Position numbers and translations under genes: made by a program
Origin: a virus
Virus record (IMG/VR): IMGVR_UViG_3300042484_001802
Strand: one strand, 5' to 3'
Length of the DNA stretch: 64,000 nt
Notes under the pieces: generated by a model
The model's database searches: none
Told to the model about the DNA's origin: nothing
Seen by the model: the letters and a program-made list of their open reading frames with translations, nothing else
Shown here: in pieces, positions 1,690 through 41,911 of the stretch
Numbering within the stretch: position 1 is the stretch's first letter
Layout of the letters: every line of letters begins with the position of its first letter

Positions 1690-4101
1690 ATGAAGGTAAA
1701 AAAAAGAAACGGTGAATTAGAAGAAATGAGATATGACAAAATTACTAAAAGAATTAGTGCCCTTTGTCATGACTTAAATTTGGAATATATTGACCCAACA
1801 TACATCACTCTTAAAGTAACGCAAGGGATATATGATGGAATTAGTACATTAGAGTTAGATAAACTAGCGGCTGAAACCGCCGCATCAATGACAACAACTC
1901 ATCCAGATTACGCAAAATTAGCTGGTAGAATTGCTGTTTCAAATTTACATAAATCAACACCAAATAAATTTTCACAATGTATTAAACAATTATATTCTTT
2001 CAATGAACCTAAAACTGGAAAAGAATCATCATTGATTTCAAAAAATTTATATGATTTTGTTTTGGAAAACAAAGAAGTAATTGACTCAGCGATTGATATC
2101 GAAAGGGATTTAGATTTTGATTTTTTTGGGATTAAAACTTTAGAAAGATCATACCTATTAAAGATTGGCGAAAAAATAGTTGAAAGACCACAGTATCTTT
2201 ATATGCGAGTTGCTATGGGTATTTGTAATGGTGATTTAGAAATGGGCTTAAGAATCTATGATGATTTGTCTACTCATTTATATACACACGCAACACCAAC
2301 ATTGTTTAATGCCGGAACACCAAAGGCACAAATGTCATCATGTTTCTTATTAGCGAATAAAGACGACAGTATCGAGGGGTTGTTTTCAACAATTAAAGAC
2401 GTTGCACACATATCTAAATGGGCCGGTGGTATTGGATTACACGTTCACAATGTTAGAGCAAAGGGTGCGTATATAAAGGGTACAGGCGGTGAATCTGATG
2501 GCTTAATCCCTATGATGAAGACATACAATGAAATTGCTCGTTGGATTAATCAAGGTGGTAAACGTAAAGGTTCATTTGCGATTTATTTAGAACCTTGGCA
2601 TTCAGACGTTTTTGAATTTATTGAATTAAGAAAAAATACTGGTAAAGAAGAGATGCGTGCTAGAGATTTATTTTTAGCAATGTGGACTCCAGATTTATTC
2701 ATGAAGCGAGTTGAGGAAGATGGTGATTGGTCACTATTCACACCAGACGAAGCTCCAGGTTTATCTGATACATATGACACACCAGAAGAAAAGAACTTTA
2801 CAAAATTATATGAACAATACGAACAAGAAGGTAGAGCGCGTAAAGTTGTAAAGGCAAGAAAATTGATGGATAAGATTTTAGAAGCGCAAATAGAAACAGG
2901 TACACCTTACATGTTGTACAAAGACCCTGCAAATTATAAATCAAACCAAAAGAATTTAGGTACAATCAAGTCATCTAACTTATGTACTGAAATTATTGAA
3001 TATTCATCTGCCGATGAACAAGCAGTTTGTAATTTAGCGTCAATCGCTTTACCAAAATATATTATTAATGGTGAGTTCAATCATGAATTGTTATATGAAA
3101 CTACTAAGCAAATTGTTAGGAACTTAAACAATGTGATTGATTTAAATTACTACCCGACAGAAGAAACTAAACGCTCTAACTTTAGACACAGACCAGTAGG
3201 TTTAGGTATTCAAGGTTTAGCAGATATTTTCTGTTTGTTAGGTATTGCATTTGAAAGTGAATTGGCGGATAAAATCCAAGTGGAAATTTTTGAAACAATT
3301 TATTTTGCAGCACTAACATCTTCAATGGAGATAGCACAAAAAGAAGGTGCTTATGAAACATTTGAAGGATCACCTTTATCTCAAGGTATTTTACAATATC
3401 AAATGTGGGGTAAAACTGATAAGGACACTTCAGGTAGATGGGACTGGAAATCACTAAGAAAACAAATCATCAAATTTGGTGTTAGAAACTCTTTATTGGT
3501 TGCACCTATGCCAACGGCATCTACAGCACAAATTTTGGGTAACAATGAAGCGTTTGAACCATTCACAACAAATCTTTACTTGAGAAGAACTTTAAGTGGA
3601 GAATTTGTTGTAATTAACAAACATTTAGTAAAAGATTTATTAAAGATTGGTATGTGGAACGATACCATCAAAAATAAATTAATTATGGAAAATGGTTCTG
3701 TTCAAAATATCCCAGAAATTCCTACAGAATTAAAAGAGATATATAAAACCGTTTGGGAAATGTCACAAAAAAGAATTATCCAAATGGCAGCAAATCGCGC
3801 TGTTTATATTGACCAATCACAATCTATGAATTTATTTATGGACAATGTGACAAAACCAAAATTATTGGCGGCACACATTTATGGTTGGAAAATGGGTTTA
3901 AAAACCGGAATGTATTATTTAAGAACTCGTTCAGCGGTAGACGCTATAAAAAGTTTAGGGGTGGATATTTCAGCCACAACACCAAAACCAGAACCAGTGC
4001 AAGCACAAACGACGAATTCAATACATTTTGAACAAAACGATGCAACCTTGACCGCAAAACCAGACGATTCACCATTTGAATGTGTTGGTTGTGGTTCATA
4101 A
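1690..4101 (+). CDS. nrdA: Ribonucleotide reductase class Ia alpha subunit with N-terminal ATP cone
   Basis: VKKRNG ATP cone, ATPTLFNAG, SSCF, SNLCTEI, VCNLAS, APMPTAST, GMYYLR and C-terminal CVGC. Confidence 0.97.
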   Translation: MKVKKRNGELEEMRYDKITKRISALCHDLNLEYIDPTYITLKVTQGIYDGISTLELDKLAAETAASMTTTHPDYAKLAGRIAVSNLHKSTPNKFSQCIKQLYSFNEPKTGKESSLISKNLYDFVLENKEVIDSAIDIERDLDFDFFGIKTLERSYLLKIGEKIVERPQYLYMRVAMGICNGDLEMGLRIYDDLSTHLYTHATPTLFNAGTPKAQMSSCFLLANKDDSIEGLFSTIKDVAHISKWAGGIGLHVHNVRAKGAYIKGTGGESDGLIPMMKTYNEIARWINQGGKRKGSFAIYLEPWHSDVFEFIELRKNTGKEEMRARDLFLAMWTPDLFMKRVEEDGDWSLFTPDEAPGLSDTYDTPEEKNFTKLYEQYEQEGRARKVVKARKLMDKILEAQIETGTPYMLYKDPANYKSNQKNLGTIKSSNLCTEIIEYSSADEQAVCNLASIALPKYIINGEFNHELLYETTKQIVRNLNNVIDLNYYPTEETKRSNFRHRPVGLGIQGLADIFCLLGIAFESELADKIQVEIFETIYFAALTSSMEIAQKEGAYETFEGSPLSQGILQYQMWGKTDKDTSGRWDWKSLRKQIIKFGVRNSLLVAPMPTASTAQILGNNEAFEPFTTNLYLRRTLSGEFVVINKHLVKDLLKIGMWNDTIKNKLIMENGSVQNIPEIPTELKEIYKTVWEMSQKRIIQMAANRAVYIDQSQSMNLFMDNVTKPKLLAAHIYGWKMGLKTGMYYLRTRSAVDAIKSLGVDISATTPKPEPVQAQTTNSIHFEQNDATLTAKPDDSPFECVGCGS

Positions 4102-4123
4102 TATAATGGGTGGCACCTAAAAA

Positions 4124-4186
4124 GTCACAATTATCGCGACATTTTTTAATAAAGCGTCACAATTATCGCGACATTTTTTAATAAAG
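4124..4186. repeat. 31-bp exact tandem direct repeat (2 copies)
   Basis: GTCACAATTATCGCGACATTTTTTAATAAAG at 4124-4154 and 4156-4186. Confidence 0.95.
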
Positions 4187-4200
4187 TGTCGCGATTTTTT
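4165..4200 (+). terminator. Intrinsic terminator after nrdA
   Basis: ATCGCGACA (4165-4173) / TGTCGCGAT (4187-4195) stem followed by a T run. Confidence 0.75.
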
Positions 4201-37520: not shown

Positions 37521-38311
37521 GTATTAAGATGTTGATAGATTGCGAGTAATGCTTTTTGAAATACGTCAATAGTGTTCTCGCAATCAGTTAACGCTTCATG
37601 AGCCATTTCTAATTTCTTAGCATACTCATCTGGATCTGGGTTAAACCCTTTCACTAAATCAGCGAGTGCGCTTGATTTTTTATTTTCGCCTGGAATTTGA
37701 TTGTACAATGTTTTATGTCTATCACTTGTCTTTGATAATTCAGCTAAAATTGGGTGAAATCTATATCTAAAGAATTCTAGTGTATCAAAGACCAAACGGT
37801 TTTTTGTTTTAAACACTTCACTTATTTCAACAAACGGCAAATCAAATGGTGCATTATGTATAAATAAAATAACATCACCATGAGAATCTAGATAGTTATC
37901 AAATTCTTCTAGTGCTTCTCTTTCTTCAGTAAATGATTCTGAGTTTGCTAAATCGTAATGGTTATATTTTAAAATTGCTTTTTTAGAATAACTAAACATC
38001 TTTTTTAATCTTTCTGGGTCATCTGGCAATTCTCTATCAGGTTCATCATTAACCTTGGCTAACATTTCTGGATTTAATTTAATTTTAACATTAAATCTAT
38101 CTATTTCAGCAAACCTTAGGGTTTCGGTATTAAAGAATGTCGCTATGGCTCCAATTTGGGTTAATTGGTCACCACTTGAGGGTCCACGGCCGGTTGTTTC
38201 GGTGTCGAAGAACACATATGTGTGATCAGCGTGGTCTGCAAACCACCTTAATAATTTATTAGCACCCGGAGAAACAATCTCCTCATTTAGCACGTCTAAG
38301 ATTTTTATCAT
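37517..38311 (-). CDS. DEDDh 3'-5' exonuclease (DnaQ/RNase T-like)
   Basis: FFDTETTG, HNAPFD, FDTL, AHEALTD motifs. Confidence 0.88.
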   Translation of the reverse strand: MIKILDVLNEEIVSPGANKLLRWFADHADHTYVFFDTETTGRGPSSGDQLTQIGAIATFFNTETLRFAEIDRFNVKIKLNPEMLAKVNDEPDRELPDDPERLKKMFSYSKKAILKYNHYDLANSESFTEEREALEEFDNYLDSHGDVILFIHNAPFDLPFVEISEVFKTKNRLVFDTLEFFRYRFHPILAELSKTSDRHKTLYNQIPGENKKSSALADLVKGFNPDPDEYAKKLEMAHEALTDCENTIDVFQKALLAIYQHLNT

Positions 38312-38351
38312 AATAATAAATATGAAATTTTTTTTATTGGGGTTAAAATCA

Positions 38352-38359
38352 TATATTTG
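38352..38359 (+). promoter_or_regulatory. Bacteroidota -7 element upstream of clpP
   Basis: Exact TAnnTTTG (TATATTTG) 17 nt before the ATG; -33 box unclear. Confidence 0.55.
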
Positions 38360-38376
38360 TTAAAAAGATAGATACT

Positions 38377-39048
38377 ATGACACCCAAAGATTACAAAGAT
38401 TTTGGTTTATATGCAAAAGACCGTGGGATTAGTTCCTTAAACATGCATTATCATCAAAAAAGTATTGAGGATAGTTTAACACCGTATGTCTTAGAAGAAA
38501 GACAAATGAATGTCACACAAATGGATGTTTTTTCACGTTTAATGATGGAAAGAATCATTTGGGTTGCTGGTGAGGTTAACGATAATATGTCAGTGATTAC
38601 TCAAGCACAGTTAATGTTCCTAGACAGTTTAGATACTAATGACATAACTATGCATATCGATACCCCAGGCGGAAGCGTTAAATCTGGTTTATCAATGGTT
38701 GATGTTATGGATTACATTAAGTCCGATATTAGGACGATTAATACTGGAATGGCCGCATCTATGGGTTCAATCCTTTTAGGAGCAGGAACAAAGGGAAAAC
38801 GTGGTTCATTGAGATTCTCAAGAACAATGTTACACCAATCATCTGGAGGTTTTAGAGGTAACATCCAAGATGCTAAGATTGATATGGTTGAGTGGGATAA
38901 ATTAAATAACACATTATTTGACCTATTAGGTGGTTATTGTGGTAAAACAGGTGAACAAGTTAAACAAGATGCATCTAGGGATCTCTGGTTGAGTTCTGAC
39001 GATGCTTTAGCATATGGTATTATTGACGAAGTTGTCAAAAGAAAATAG
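38377..39048 (+). CDS. clpP: ATP-dependent Clp protease proteolytic subunit
   Basis: MDVFSRLMMERII, TPGGSV, AASMG (Ser), MLHQ (His), RDLWL (Asp), YGIIDEV. Confidence 0.95.
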   Translation: MTPKDYKDFGLYAKDRGISSLNMHYHQKSIEDSLTPYVLEERQMNVTQMDVFSRLMMERIIWVAGEVNDNMSVITQAQLMFLDSLDTNDITMHIDTPGGSVKSGLSMVDVMDYIKSDIRTINTGMAASMGSILLGAGTKGKRGSLRFSRTMLHQSSGGFRGNIQDAKIDMVEWDKLNNTLFDLLGGYCGKTGEQVKQDASRDLWLSSDDALAYGIIDEVVKRK

Positions 39049-39083
39049 GGTTAATTTATTCAACATTTTGGTTTCAACAAATC

Positions 39084-39109
39084 GGGAAGTTTTTAACTTC
39101 CCTTTTTTT
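39084..39109 (+). terminator. Intrinsic terminator after clpP
   Basis: GGGAAGTT / AACTTCCC + T7. Confidence 0.88.
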
Positions 39110-39132
39110 ATTTATTCCCTTATATTTATTCC

Positions 39133-40045
39133 TAGACCTTGTGGTTGAAGTCGAAGTGTCCCAGAGGCATTTGAGTTGGAATTAATACCAACGAATTCGG
39201 GTTCAAATACAAAAAAAATATAAGGAAATGAACAGAAGAATTTCAGTTAACACAACTGGTCTTGCTGTACCACAATCTTTCATTACTAAAGGTAAACAAA
39301 GATTAAAACAGCACATTGACACCGTATATCTTAATAACGGTGATGAGTTCGAAATCGAACTTTTTAATCCAACACACAATAAAGTTTTAGCAAAAATTGA
39401 GATGAATGGTAATGCCGTTGGTAATGGTATTATAATTCGTCCAGGTGAACGCGTTTTCCTCGAAAGATATCTTGATGAGGCAAAGAAGTTTTTATTTGAA
39501 ACATATGTTGTAAATGGTGATAATTTAGAAGTACAAGAAGCAATTGCTGATAATGGTGATGTGGTTATTAAGTTCTATAACGAAACTCCTCCACCGACAT
39601 ATTATAGCGGTAATTCAGGCACGTTAACGATATCTAACCCAGGTTGGATAAACAACACGGGAACACAATATTACAACATTCCAAACTTTTCCACAACAAG
39701 TACAAGTACGTTTTACAATGCGTCTTTAACAAGTGGAACGTTTAGTACCTCAAATACATTCTTAAACAACCCCGATAAGGTTAAAAAATCTAAAAGACAG
39801 GTTGAAACAGGTAGAGTTGAAAAGGGTTCCAATTCTAATCAATCCTTTACATACGATAGCACATCTTTCAATAGTTGGGCGTCTAACACAAATTGGTGGA
39901 AAATAAAACCCAAATCAACTCAATTGGTAACAATGGATGATTTGGCTACATATTGCACTGAATGTGGCGGGAAAAGGAAAAAAGACACATATAAGTTCTG
40001 CCCACAATGTGGTACAAAATACTAATAAACTAATCACAAGGTCTA
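39133..40045 (+). repeat. 15-nt long-range inverted repeat bracketing one gene
   Basis: TAGACCTTGTGGTTG (39133-39147) versus TAATCACAAGGTCTA (40031-40045): 13 Watson-Crick and 2 G-U pairs. Confidence 0.85.
39228..40025 (+). CDS. Hypothetical protein with C-terminal zinc ribbon
   Basis: Beta-rich N-domain, S/T/N-rich linker, ETGRVEKGS motif, CTECG...CPQCG. Confidence 0.7.
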   Translation: MNRRISVNTTGLAVPQSFITKGKQRLKQHIDTVYLNNGDEFEIELFNPTHNKVLAKIEMNGNAVGNGIIIRPGERVFLERYLDEAKKFLFETYVVNGDNLEVQEAIADNGDVVIKFYNETPPPTYYSGNSGTLTISNPGWINNTGTQYYNIPNFSTTSTSTFYNASLTSGTFSTSNTFLNNPDKVKKSKRQVETGRVEKGSNSNQSFTYDSTSFNSWASNTNWWKIKPKSTQLVTMDDLATYCTECGGKRKKDTYKFCPQCGTKY

Positions 40046-40050
40046 ACTCT

Positions 40051-40073
40051 GAGGTCGCTTTTGCGACCTCTTT
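40051..40073 (+). terminator. Intrinsic terminator
   Basis: GAGGTCGC-TTTT-GCGACCTC followed by TTTGTATTT. Confidence 0.75.
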
Positions 40074-40096
40074 GTATTTATAATAAAACAGATAAT

Positions 40097-40432
40097 ATGA
40101 AGATTGATAAAACAAACATCCTATTAGTTTTGATTGCTTGTTTGGCTGGCTATACCATATTTCAAAATCAAGGTATAAAAACTGACGTTGCGGGTTATAA
40201 CGCTAAAATTGAATCCTTACAAAAGGAAATTGATTCGGTTTATATTGCAAACAAAGAAATAGACAATCAAATCGAAAAAGTTGATAATCACATTGTTAAT
40301 GTTGATAAAGATATCGACAACGTGACAAAAAACATAACTATTATTAAAAACAACACAGATGAAAAAGTTAATTCTATTACTACTATTGGTAATGTTGAGC
40401 TTGAGCAGTTATTCGCAAACAGATACAACTAA
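40097..40432 (+). CDS. Membrane-anchored coiled-coil protein, spanin-like
   Basis: N-terminal hydrophobic anchor plus heptad coiled coil; ATG 40097 follows TATTTAT at 40075; overlaps the next gene. Confidence 0.5.
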   Translation: MKIDKTNILLVLIACLAGYTIFQNQGIKTDVAGYNAKIESLQKEIDSVYIANKEIDNQIEKVDNHIVNVDKDIDNVTKNITIIKNNTDEKVNSITTIGNVELEQLFANRYN

Positions 40433-40784
40433 AGTTATTGTATTAGATACTACTAAAGTTACTATACCAACAAAAGTTGCTAGATTAGTATTTCAAGATT
40501 TGCTTCGTTACGACGGTGCTAAGTTAGAAATTATTGAGTTAAATAAAGTAATAACACTAAAAGACGAACAAATTGGTTTGTTTAAACAAAAAGACACTTT
40601 AAAAGACCAAAAAATAACAAACTTAGAAGTTATTATTTCTAAGAAAGATGAACAGTTTGGTTTAGAAAGACAAAAATCTGAAAGTTTATTAAAAGAACTT
40701 AAAGGGCAAAGAACCAAAACATTTTTATATAAAGTTGGAACTTATGTCGGGATAATTGCTACTAGTATATTATTGATTAAGTAA
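40359..40784 (+). CDS. Exported coiled-coil protein with C-terminal hydrophobic segment, spanin-partner-like
   Basis: MKKLILLLLL..SYSQ signal peptide (cleavage before Gln, Bacteroidota style); 74-nt overlap with the upstream gene as in Rz/Rz1 pairs. Confidence 0.5.
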   Translation: MKKLILLLLLVMLSLSSYSQTDTTKVIVLDTTKVTIPTKVARLVFQDLLRYDGAKLEIIELNKVITLKDEQIGLFKQKDTLKDQKITNLEVIISKKDEQFGLERQKSESLLKELKGQRTKTFLYKVGTYVGIIATSILLIK

Positions 40785-40785
40785 T

Positions 40786-41427
40786 ATGAAAAAACATTTA
40801 ACAGCCAAGAATTTTATTATTGTTATTTTAATAATTTTATTATTCTTGGCTTTTTACAATCCAGGCGGGCATTTACCAAATAGAACAATCACAAGGGTTG
40901 ATTCAATAGGTTATGCCGTACACGATACAATATCAGTGGATAGTTTAATTGAGGTAGAAATTGAAATTGAGGTTCCAGTTGAGGTGGAGGTTGAAAAAAG
41001 AGTAGAGGTACAGGTATTAACACCAGTTGACACAACAGAAATTTTAAAGATTTATTTTGCGAAAATCCAACATAAAGATGTGCTAACATTACCTAACAAT
41101 GTTGGGACTATTACGATTATGGATACAATATCTAAAAATAGTATTGTTAACAGAAAGTTTATTAGTGACATTAAACAAATGATTATTAAAGATACAGTTT
41201 ACACAAAAGAACCTAAGAAAGGTCAAATGTACTTTGGATTTAATGGTAGTTTAAGTAAACCTGATGTAGTTTCACATCTTGGCACTGGTATAATGTATAA
41301 AACAAAAGAAGATAAGATATATCATCTAGGTATTGGTGTGGCAAACAGAATCTTAGACGGGACGACCGGAAAATTTACCCCATATGTTGACGGCGGTGTT
41401 TATTTTAAGATAAAAACAAGAAGGTAA
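40786..41427 (+). CDS. Membrane-anchored/exported protein with beta-rich C-terminus
   Basis: N-terminal transmembrane segment, VEVE repeats, amphipathic beta strands ending GGVYFKI. Confidence 0.55.
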   Translation: MKKHLTAKNFIIVILIILLFLAFYNPGGHLPNRTITRVDSIGYAVHDTISVDSLIEVEIEIEVPVEVEVEKRVEVQVLTPVDTTEILKIYFAKIQHKDVLTLPNNVGTITIMDTISKNSIVNRKFISDIKQMIIKDTVYTKEPKKGQMYFGFNGSLSKPDVVSHLGTGIMYKTKEDKIYHLGIGVANRILDGTTGKFTPYVDGGVYFKIKTRR

Positions 41428-41431
41428 TTAA

Positions 41432-41911
41432 TTACTCAATAAAATTCCAAGGGTGTAAGGTAACCCCCACCACAAATAGATGTTCGTCCAATAATAGGGT
41501 GACTCTTTCAATACCTAAATGAACATCCCTACTACCTTCACTATCAACTATATATTCACTCCAATCTAATTGAAGAATGTGTTCAAATGTATCTTCGCCA
41601 TCATCGGTTAATGGTTCAACTTCAATTTCCACTTCAATATCCCTAGGACCGCGCACATTGGTTATTTCAATAGAATCAATCCCCCAACCCCTTAAAGTCA
41701 TATATAGGTCATAGACAATATTCATTTTACCAATTGGGTTAACATTATAAATTCTTTGCCCATCATATTGGCGCGGATGTTCAATTTCAACCTCAACATC
41801 GGTTCTGAAATCAAGTAAATCCTTACCTATACTTTCATTGATAAGACCTTTAGATAGGTTTTCAGCTAAGTTTTGAACCTGTTTTCTTTTTAATTTTATT
41901 GTTTTTGGCAT
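41432..41911 (-). CDS. Hypothetical acidic protein (possible head-packaged protein)
   Basis: 159 aa; minus-strand TATTTAT at 41933-41939; basic leader ending LINE. Confidence 0.55.
   Translation of the reverse strand: MPKTIKLKRKQVQNLAENLSKGLINESIGKDLLDFRTDVEVEIEHPRQYDGQRIYNVNPIGKMNIVYDLYMTLRGWGIDSIEITNVRGPRDIEVEIEVEPLTDDGEDTFEHILQLDWSEYIVDSEGSRDVHLGIERVTLLLDEHLFVVGVTLHPWNFIE

Follow-up and report, generated by a model that had tools for sequence, protein, structure and literature searches.

The DNA analysed here, referred to below as the window, is a stretch of 64,000 nucleotides (nt) from the IMG/VR virus record IMGVR_UViG_3300042484_001802. Its + strand contains a transcription unit with a single open reading frame (ORF) encoding an uncharacterised protein of 265 amino acids (aa). 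The ORF is preceded by a promoter-like sequence and a structured leader, and it is followed by an intrinsic terminator. The first nucleotides of the predicted messenger RNA (mRNA) are complementary to a segment located just past the stop codon. The original prediction was that this complementarity operates at the RNA level and closes a single-gene transcript into a loop. Comparison of homologous loci bears this out: the complementarity of the flanks is retained with compensatory changes in two clades with unrelated arms, and by this comparative evidence the end pairing is selected for. The features of the unit are listed below in window coordinates. Helices are denoted P1 to P4, with a and b for the 5' and 3' strands, and junctions are denoted J.

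39084-39109, + strand: intrinsic terminator of the upstream ClpP-like gene, with an 8-base-pair (bp) stem and a 3-nt loop (39084-39102), then a T-run
39121-39129, + strand: promoter-like sequence TATATTTAT (family consensus TATAYTTA), with TATTTAT inside it at 39123-39129
39133-39147, + strand: 5' arm as originally delimited, TAGACCTTGTGGTTG, 15 nt
39134-39146, + strand: P1a, AGACCUUGUGGUU, 5' strand of the end helix, forming the conserved 13 bp with 40032-40044
39146-39155, + strand: P2a, 5' strand of the closing helix of the leader, partner of 39196-39205
39156-39170, + strand: P3 hairpin, GUGUC, 5-nt loop, GGCAU; 5 pairs, 4 of them compensatory, 100% paired
39171-39174, + strand: junction J3/4, UUGA, invariant or nearly so (invariant columns T41-G48)
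39175-39192, + strand: P4 hairpin, GUUGG, 8-nt A-rich loop, CCAAC; 5 pairs, 100% paired
39193-39195, + strand: junction J4/2, RAA, preceding P2b
39196-39205, + strand: P2b, 3' strand of the closing helix
39206-39227, + strand: conserved A-rich spacer AAUACAAAAAAAAUAUAAGGAA, predicted to be mostly unpaired, with the Shine-Dalgarno (SD)-like AAGGA at 39222-39226
39228-40025, + strand: ORF of 265 aa, with the stop codon TAA at 40023-40025
40031-40045, + strand: 3' arm as originally delimited, TAATCACAAGGTCTA, 5 nt past the stop codon
40032-40044, + strand: P1b, AAUCACAAGGUCU, 3' strand of the end helix, 6 nt past the stop codon
40051-40078, + strand: intrinsic terminator and 3' end of the unit, with a G+C-rich 8-bp stem, a 4-nt loop (40051-40070) and a U-rich tail, 6 nt past P1b

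On re-reading of the sequence, the coordinates and letters originally given for this locus were all correct. The terminator of the upstream gene would isolate the unit from read-through. A minus-strand ORF of 58 aa (39203-39379), antisense to the boundary of the leader and the ORF, has no hallmarks of a gene and is probably spurious.

Helix P1 is a complementarity between the 5' untranslated region (UTR) and the 3' UTR within one transcription unit, upstream of the terminator (39134-39146 with 40032-40044). In the window sequence the two arms form 15 paired positions: 11 consecutive Watson-Crick pairs, a G.U pair, two further Watson-Crick pairs and a second G.U pair. Both deviations from Watson-Crick pairing are thus wobbles when read on the + strand. 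The search for repeats in the 1.4 kb around the unit lists the arm pair as 14 nt with 93% complementarity, and other 14-nt pairs with 86% complementarity are present in the same region. The perfectly paired 11-mer has no second occurrence in the window. RNAfold applied to the 946-nt transcript places the 15-bp end helix both in the minimum free energy structure and in the centroid. Taken alone in one sequence, the arm repeat is not statistically striking. Hence, the case for P1 rests on the comparison of homologues.

The protein family is large, with 2406 matches in 90% clusters and 2462 representative clusters at 50%. We retrieved 83 loci from IMG/VR; after duplicates and truncated loci had been dropped, 58 non-redundant loci remained, with protein identity of 43-82%. 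All 58 have a 5' arm located 86-105 nt ahead of the ATG, matched by a complementary 3' arm past the stop codon; a single locus (L033) contains one mismatch in the core of P1. The arms were anchored on the invariant CCUUG/CAAGG and scored at 14 positions (offsets -4 to +9). Among the 28 distinct arm combinations found in these loci, 90% of the scored cells are paired, compared with 29-46% in the control where the 3' partner was slid by 1-3 nt. The covariation score of P1 equals 0.234 versus 0.112 +/- 0.016 in column shuffles, with none of 500 shuffles reaching the observed value. Covariation is seen at offsets -4, -3, -2, +6, +7 and +8. Pairing-preserving exchanges include G-C (14 cases) and A-U (12) at offset -2, G-C (18) and U-A (7) at offset +6, and G.U (15), A-U (4) and G-C (3) at offset +7; offset +8 also shows exchanges that keep the pairing. 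The conserved core of the helix comprises 13 bp.

The assignment to RNA had been argued from the two G.U pairs. Within P1 this argument gains modest support, with 21 G.U cells versus 11 A.C cells. Strong support comes from the leader helices next to it, where G.U pairs abound and 98.5% of cells are paired on the + strand. The comparison of flanks across homologues, proposed at the outset as a check, was carried out for the 58 loci and for the second clade described below, with complementarity and compensatory changes found in both sets.

The leader of ~95 nt is more conserved than the protein, with mean column identity of 73% (42 sequences) and long invariant runs. RNAalifold folds it into a three-way junction of 19 pairs, 12 of them with compensatory changes. 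P2 consists of 4 bp, a 1x1 mismatch and 5 bp; changes on both sides are observed at seven of its nine pairs, and the mismatch (39150/39201) is fixed in position in every clade while its bases vary. The stem of P4 (GUUGG/CCAAC, with an A-rich loop of 7-9 nt) is nearly invariant, one compensatory case being GUUGA/UCAAC in locus L079. The junctions UUGA, between P3 and P4, and RAA, between P4 and P2b, are invariant or nearly so, and UUGA recurs in the leader of the second clade (as UUGAG). In total, 98.5% of leader cells are paired versus 30-44% when the partner is slid. Double-sided changes number 114 cells versus 30 in shuffles, and the covariation score is 0.475 versus 0.175, none of 500 shuffles reaching it. 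Since G.U pairs are many and A.C pairs are almost absent, the structure was assigned to the + strand RNA. P1a runs into P2a without an unpaired base on the 5' strand, and U39146 may join either helix. In the structural model P1 and P2 can therefore stack as a rod of ~23 bp. Between P2b and P1b the 3' strand of this rod is broken, since the A-rich spacer is looped out there together with the start region and the ORF.

A covariance model was built from the leader and searched against the window, the 90,962-nt viral record that contains it and the homologous loci. It has a single copy in the window and in the record. It also matches ahead of homologues with ~35% protein identity (L086, E 1.6e-4; L085, E 2e-3). 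In every case the leader accompanies this one gene family, with a single copy in each genome record. An Rfam 15 covariance-model scan of positions 38000-41500 with E values up to 10 assigned no family to the leader and returned four chance-level matches (17-22 bits versus gathering scores of 50-56). ARAGORN found no tRNA or tmRNA in or near the unit. From the comparative evidence, we consider the leader a new structured RNA family that is widely distributed in huge phages. In one homologue, L045 (IMGVR_UViG_3300045125_000071), the frame stops after ~129 codons while tblastn similarity runs on to the C-terminus, which could reflect a frameshift, a recoded stop or an assembly error; the leader of this locus is still recognised by the model (E 8e-14).

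Two other structures were considered for the leader and rejected. A type III hammerhead, suggested by the three-way junction with GA-rich junctions, requires CUGANGA where AUUUGA is present, and P2a and P3 leave no nucleotides between them where a cleavage site could lie; Rfam gave no match either. Alternative pairing of P1b with the loop of P3 would involve CCUUGUGG, which is found in P3 of some loci only and is not conserved. In loci L003, L004, L007, L009, L011-L013 and L039, P3 reads GUCCUUGUGGC and so repeats the P1a core CCUUGUGG; the 3' arm could pair there.

The second deep clade (L090, L095-L112; LR745206.1) has proteins ~30% identical to the 265-aa product and carries unrelated arms, AGCUGUUCG and CGAACAGCU, at the same two positions. 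Its first representative, L090, belongs to a 634-kb phage and has 8-10 bp of complementarity, GCUGUUCG/CGAACAGC, at both places. Twenty relatives of L090 were retrieved, which yielded 13 distinct arm combinations. The helix in this clade is 10-13 bp long and shows compensatory changes, for example A-U in place of C-G at offsets 0 and +5, and the states G-C, G.U, U-A and A-U at offset +6. The 5' arm begins a few nt after the motif ATATATAA(T), and the 3' arm is located 10-14 nt past the stop codon, ahead of a terminator. The leader of the clade reads CUUAUGUCGGG...UUGAG...GAUAUAGG. Because unrelated arms pair at the same positions, the principle by which the transcript start pairs just past the stop codon has, on this comparative evidence, survived a total replacement of the arm sequences. 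Proteins of this clade, including that of L090, carry a C-terminal SHOCT-like extension, and in several of its loci the gene follows another ORF ending in a zinc ribbon.

In one lineage the predicted 5' end falls directly within an 11-bp P2 (L086, which has no 3' arm). The requirement that is conserved may hence be a paired 5' end. In another lineage (L085/L146; LR756500.1 and IMGVR_UViG_3300025030_000039) the 5' blocks GUUAAGG and UCUCACUUUGUU are complementary to the 3'-UTR blocks GCCUUAAC and AACAAAGUGAGA. These blocks follow in crossing order, and a long-range pseudoknot would result if both helices formed at once; these loci show no evident terminator.

The motif TATAYTTAT has five copies in the window, all on the coding strand just upstream of genes. 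The related TAT[TA]TAT is found ahead of at least 14 other genes of the window, including baseplate wedge and other structural genes, and ends 4-22 nt short of their ATG (motif search of the + strand; examples at 4227-33, 6567-73, 13894-900, 23223-29, 24948-54, 26122-28, 27849-55, 47287-93, 51235-41 and 63021-27). The TATAYTTA-type motif resembles a late promoter or a Bacteroidota -7 box, and TAT[TA]TAT looks like the promoter element of leaderless or nearly leaderless, probably late, mRNAs. Among the genes with TAT[TA]TAT in the window, only that of the 265-aa product has a gap of 98 nt between the motif and the ATG. In 44 of the 58 loci, 4-7 nt lie between the end of the promoter motif and P1a, and transcription would thus start at ~39134-39136, at the first pairs of P1. 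At the other end, the spacer between the stop codon and P1b has the length of 4-11 nt (mode 7-9), and the terminator begins 0-8 nt past P1b in 57 of the 58 loci. With the predicted start at the first pairs of P1 and the end after the terminator, both ends of the message would lie in one compact domain.

When the stop codon occupies the A site, the ribosome covers 7-9 nt of mRNA downstream. The spacer between the stop codon and P1b equals this coverage, and P1 would therefore lie just outside the terminating ribosome. The ribosome-binding region has an unpaired probability of 0.86 at the window locus. Sixteen metatranscriptome runs from freshwater, lakes or estuaries contain small shares of the stretch, and in the four that were compared with it contigs of relatives (85-99% identity) extend over the leader, the 5' part of the ORF and the next gene. 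As these contigs show no ends, and two of them extend into the promoter sequence, they are uninformative about the start, processing and circular junctions.

The 265-aa product was modelled with AlphaFold2 from an alignment of 70 sequences, with a predicted local distance difference test score (pLDDT) of 84.6 and a predicted template modelling score (pTM) of 0.71. The model contains an immunoglobulin (Ig)-like β-sandwich formed by residues 16-119 and strands 191-202 and 220-228. The sandwich is interrupted by a disordered S/T/N-rich insert (~126-188) and followed by a putative C-terminal zinc ribbon of the CxxC...CxxC type, whose cysteines C243, C246, C258 and C261 are invariant in the 70 sequences. 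The Pfam families Zn_Ribbon_1 and DZR match this ribbon with 17 bits, below their cut-offs of 25-27, and neither Pfam nor PHROGs gave any hit above threshold for the product. Conserved basic residues include K21, K23, R25 and K27, as well as K251, K252 and K256, with KRKK at the zinc ribbon. Because of these basic clusters, binding of nucleic acids by the product is plausible.

Foldseek comparison of the model with PDB gave no match at E <= 0.001, and wider structural alignment against PDB returned only generic sandwiches of the Ig, major sperm protein (MSP) and PapD type (Z <= 7.1). Against BFVD, the Foldseek matches were uncharacterised proteins of eukaryotic large DNA viruses (E 7e-9 to 1e-3), including those of Pithovirus, klosneuviruses and nudiviruses, ORF098 of the iridovirus ISKNV (infectious spleen and kidney necrosis virus), wsv390 of the nimavirus WSSV (white spot syndrome virus) and baculovirus P22.2. 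Ranavirus ICP-18 came next (E 3e-3). Judging by the model, the family may represent an unrecognised fold with a β-sandwich and a zinc ribbon that is common to huge phages and giant viruses.

The structure of the message is supported by natural covariation, and from it we infer a function. We assign a probability of about one half to the reading in which P1, the leader and the terminator serve as an end-clamp for a strongly expressed late mRNA, which they would protect and organise. P1a, the first ~13 nt of the predicted transcript, pairs with P1b at 4-11 nt past the stop codon and closes the message. P1 continues without a gap into P2, and with the terminator hairpin 0-8 nt past P1b these elements make one compact domain. 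The A-rich ribosome-binding region and the ORF are looped out between P2b and P1b, which leaves the initiation region open. The buried 5' terminus, positioned beside the 3' terminator, would be shielded from decay that depends on the 5' end (entry of RppH and RNases E, G, J or Y). The clamp would protect the message from 3' exonucleases as well, making it long-lived and heavily translated late in infection. The junction would hold the stop and start codons ~30-40 nt apart. The reach of a ribosome at termination matches the spacer between the stop codon and P1b (mode 7-9 nt), so that P1 could stay formed while the message is translated. The invariant sequence of the junction and P4 would probably bind a factor in addition.

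Several observations weigh against the end-clamp. The start site is a prediction from the promoter motif, and the metatranscriptome contigs give no ends. A local hairpin suffices for protection of a 5' end, which leaves the long-range partner unexplained, and the near-invariant junction nucleotides and P4 stem are likewise not explained by a clamp. The decay nucleases named for the clamp are presumed ones. Further, some lineages manage without P1: in L086 and L109 the 3' arm is absent and the terminator directly follows the stop codon, and homologues from Lak megaphages (~33% identity, with an in-frame TAG upstream) have no comparable arms by eye and only a large terminator.

The invariance of the junction makes an autoregulatory operator worth considering, although we hold this only tentatively. 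In such a scheme the junction held by P1 and P2 would bind a protein that sets translation or decay of the message. The basic zinc-ribbon product of the gene itself would be the most economical candidate, a translational regulator of the phage or host being possible too. Control of this kind is exemplified by gp32 of phage T4 and by ribosomal-protein leaders. UUGA, RAA, the P4 stem and the A-rich spacer remain nearly invariant while the protein diverges to 43% identity, and invariant unpaired nucleotides next to a diverging protein are typical of a contact surface for a protein or ligand. The recurrence of the UUGA junction in the second clade, the coupling of the leader to one gene family once per genome record, and the invariant basic clusters and zinc ribbon of the product agree with an operator. 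However, the fold of the product is a generic β-sandwich, and the ribosome-binding region is located outside the conserved helices; moreover, an operator is compatible with an end-clamp rather than exclusive of it. The same tentative standing applies to a non-covalently circularised mRNA, in which the junction would sense or recruit a factor and would couple termination to re-initiation, with ribosomes recycled over the ~30-40 nt that separate stop and start; as an alternative, it would permit translation of completed transcripts only. An unlikely reading is a processing stem, in which RNase III, or a different nuclease specific for double strands, would cut the stacked P1 and P2, so that the leader, the terminator or both would be trimmed from the mature mRNA, or decay would be triggered. 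P1 (13 bp) leads directly into P2 (4 bp, 1x1 mismatch, 5 bp), and their combined length of roughly two helical turns falls in the size range of RNase III substrates; the mismatch keeps its position in every clade though its bases differ. There is also a precedent, as the 5'/3' pairing of the icaR mRNA makes an RNase III substrate (PMC3868564). Nevertheless, the 3' strand of the rod is discontinuous where the ORF exits between P2b and P1b, loss of the terminator hairpin would normally destabilise an mRNA, and lineages without P1 exist.

A switch that monitors completion of the transcript appears more doubtful still. The nascent P1a would pair locally, either with UACAA past P2b or with AAUAAGG of the ribosome-binding region, until the 3' arm is made and forms the stronger P1; this would free the initiation region, and only full-length transcripts would be translated efficiently. 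Folds of the leader alone indeed put P1a in a 7-bp helix with AAUAAGG in GUU-type loci (L031, L035, L046, L048, L050, L055, L058, L079 and others), where the unpaired probability of the ribosome-binding region falls to ~0.5, and in a 5-bp helix with UACAA in GUGG-type loci. Moreover, CAAGG of P1b and the SD-like UAAGG share a core complementary to the invariant CCUUG. But the masking is not conserved, with the clade of the window keeping 0.8-0.86 unpaired in the absence of P1b; the core bases are invariant and hence beyond the covariation test; and by inspection loci of the L054 type break the sole apparent covariation. We regard as very improbable that the arms act as a DNA-level inverted repeat, whether as the ends of an invertible or mobile cassette or as a protein-binding palindrome. 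The unit is self-contained in having a promoter and a terminator of its own, and it is found in gene neighbourhoods that differ by clade at similar protein identity, as a cassette would be. Yet it has one orientation in all 58 loci, with the motif upstream and the terminator downstream, and no inverted form was seen; domain searches and the neighbourhoods revealed no recombinase or transposase domain inside or beside it. In addition, one P1 position most often shows G.T, which can pair as RNA whereas in DNA it is mismatched; the 5' arm passes without a break into RNA helices with strong covariation on the + strand; and the arms sit exactly between the predicted start and the terminator.

By analogy, the closest known case to P1 is the hbs mRNA of Bacillus subtilis, in which a 14-bp helix linking the 5' UTR with the 3' UTR modulates cleavage by RNase Y in a structured leader (Braun, Durand & Condon 2017, PMC5737220). 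This mRNA encodes an abundant protein, and the helix limits access of RNase Y to the leader (PMC5737220). Both messages are monocistronic and have a structured 5' UTR, a helix of ~13-14 bp between the UTRs upstream of the terminator, and a free ribosome-binding site. In the phage unit, however, the predicted transcript begins with the 5' strand itself, which is stacked on a conserved three-way junction. The sequences are unrelated, and the phage host probably belongs to Bacteroidota rather than Firmicutes. Besides, the phage element is phage-borne, spans hundreds of huge-phage lineages and is supported by covariation rather than by experiment. In the icaR mRNA of Staphylococcus aureus, whose 3' UTR pairs with its 5' UTR, initiation is blocked by a UCCCCUG motif that covers the Shine-Dalgarno region (Ruiz de los Mozos et al. 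2013, PMC3868564). The phage unit is alike in pairing its own 5' and 3' UTRs and in forming a duplex of the kind that RNase III could recognise. Masking of the icaR type was rejected for it, as P1b pairs with the first 13 nt, ~75 nt upstream of AAGGA, and the ribosome-binding region remains 0.86 unpaired.

In hok/Sok systems, the full-length mRNA is inhibited by fold-back, its extreme 5' end being paired with its 3' end. The hok mRNAs encode membrane toxins of ~50 aa and have tac and ucb elements, an antisense RNA and 3' trimming for activation. The phage unit shares the pairing of the extreme 5' end with the 3' end; it differs in that the terminator directly follows the arm and no antisense unit is seen. 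The toxin reading for which hok had served as a precedent was not sustained, given a soluble protein of 265 aa with more than 2400 conserved relatives and no Rfam match to the Sok or hok families. In rRNA precursors and in early and late mRNAs of phage T7, stems cut by RNase III are formed by distant flanks. Similarly, flanks located ~0.9 kb apart pair here around an RNA segment, and P1 with P2 spans about two helical turns, whereas one strand of the phage rod is broken by the exit of the ORF and the enclosed segment is a translated ORF.

To our knowledge, few bacterial or phage mRNAs pair their own ends, and the known cases (hbs, icaR and hok) are each single-species experiments. The element adds a new member to this rare class of bacterial-type mRNAs. 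Two deep clades whose arms have turned over both show natural covariation, an unusually clean demonstration that closing of an mRNA is selected. The helix, moreover, is accompanied by a structured leader family without a counterpart in Rfam that is widespread among uncultivated huge phages, freshwater ones included. It marks an abundant, uncharacterised protein with a β-sandwich and a zinc ribbon as one that these phages take special care to express. If the end-clamp stabilises the message or recycles ribosomes, it would offer a compact natural design (~110 nt in total) for long-lived mRNAs in SD-poor systems of the Bacteroidota type, and the benefit of a bacterial closed loop would become directly testable. 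If the message is circularised in the sense described above, it would give bacterial viruses a counterpart to the closed loop of eukaryotes, kept across deep phage lineages despite replacement of the arms.

The window lies on the minus strand of the 90,962-nt record, the completeness of which is estimated at ~27%. Neighbouring genes in the window encode an SbcC-like ATPase, a DEDDh-type exonuclease, a ClpP-family protease, a sigma-70-family protein, baseplate and tail-fibre proteins and ribonucleotide reductase. The gene directly upstream of the unit was assigned to the ClpP family by Pfam (PF00574, E 3.5e-54). Relatives found by DNA and protein searches are uncultivated huge phages, namely IMG/VR contigs of 200-330 kb and one of 636 kb, "huge phage" genomes of the LR7565xx series and Prevotella Lak megaphages. 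The window is part of a huge phage of the jumbo-phage class, probably with a host from Bacteroidota. An SD-like motif is present at only 4 of 48 gene starts in the window; this scarcity and the Lak relatives fit a host of the Bacteroidota type, which we infer from them.

The unit, with its own promoter and terminator, is located in neighbourhoods that vary by clade: an SbcC-ClpP context in the clade of the window, and other contexts elsewhere. The identity of the 265-aa product does not track that of its neighbours across these contexts. The unit thus looks like a portable expression cassette, and no evidence that the arms participate in its movement was found at the loci compared.

Another repeated element is located at window positions 4120-4200, in the spacer after the nrdA-like gene (1690-4101). 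It consists of two tandem copies of a ~35-nt unit, GTCACAATTATCGCGACATTTTTTAATAAAG, and a partial third copy that ends in a T-run, each unit containing a palindrome of the GTCGCGA type. The 138-nt spacer folds far better than its shuffles (z = -4.2). The tandem repeat differs from the leader of the 265-aa gene and could be a reiterated terminator or a protein-binding repeat.

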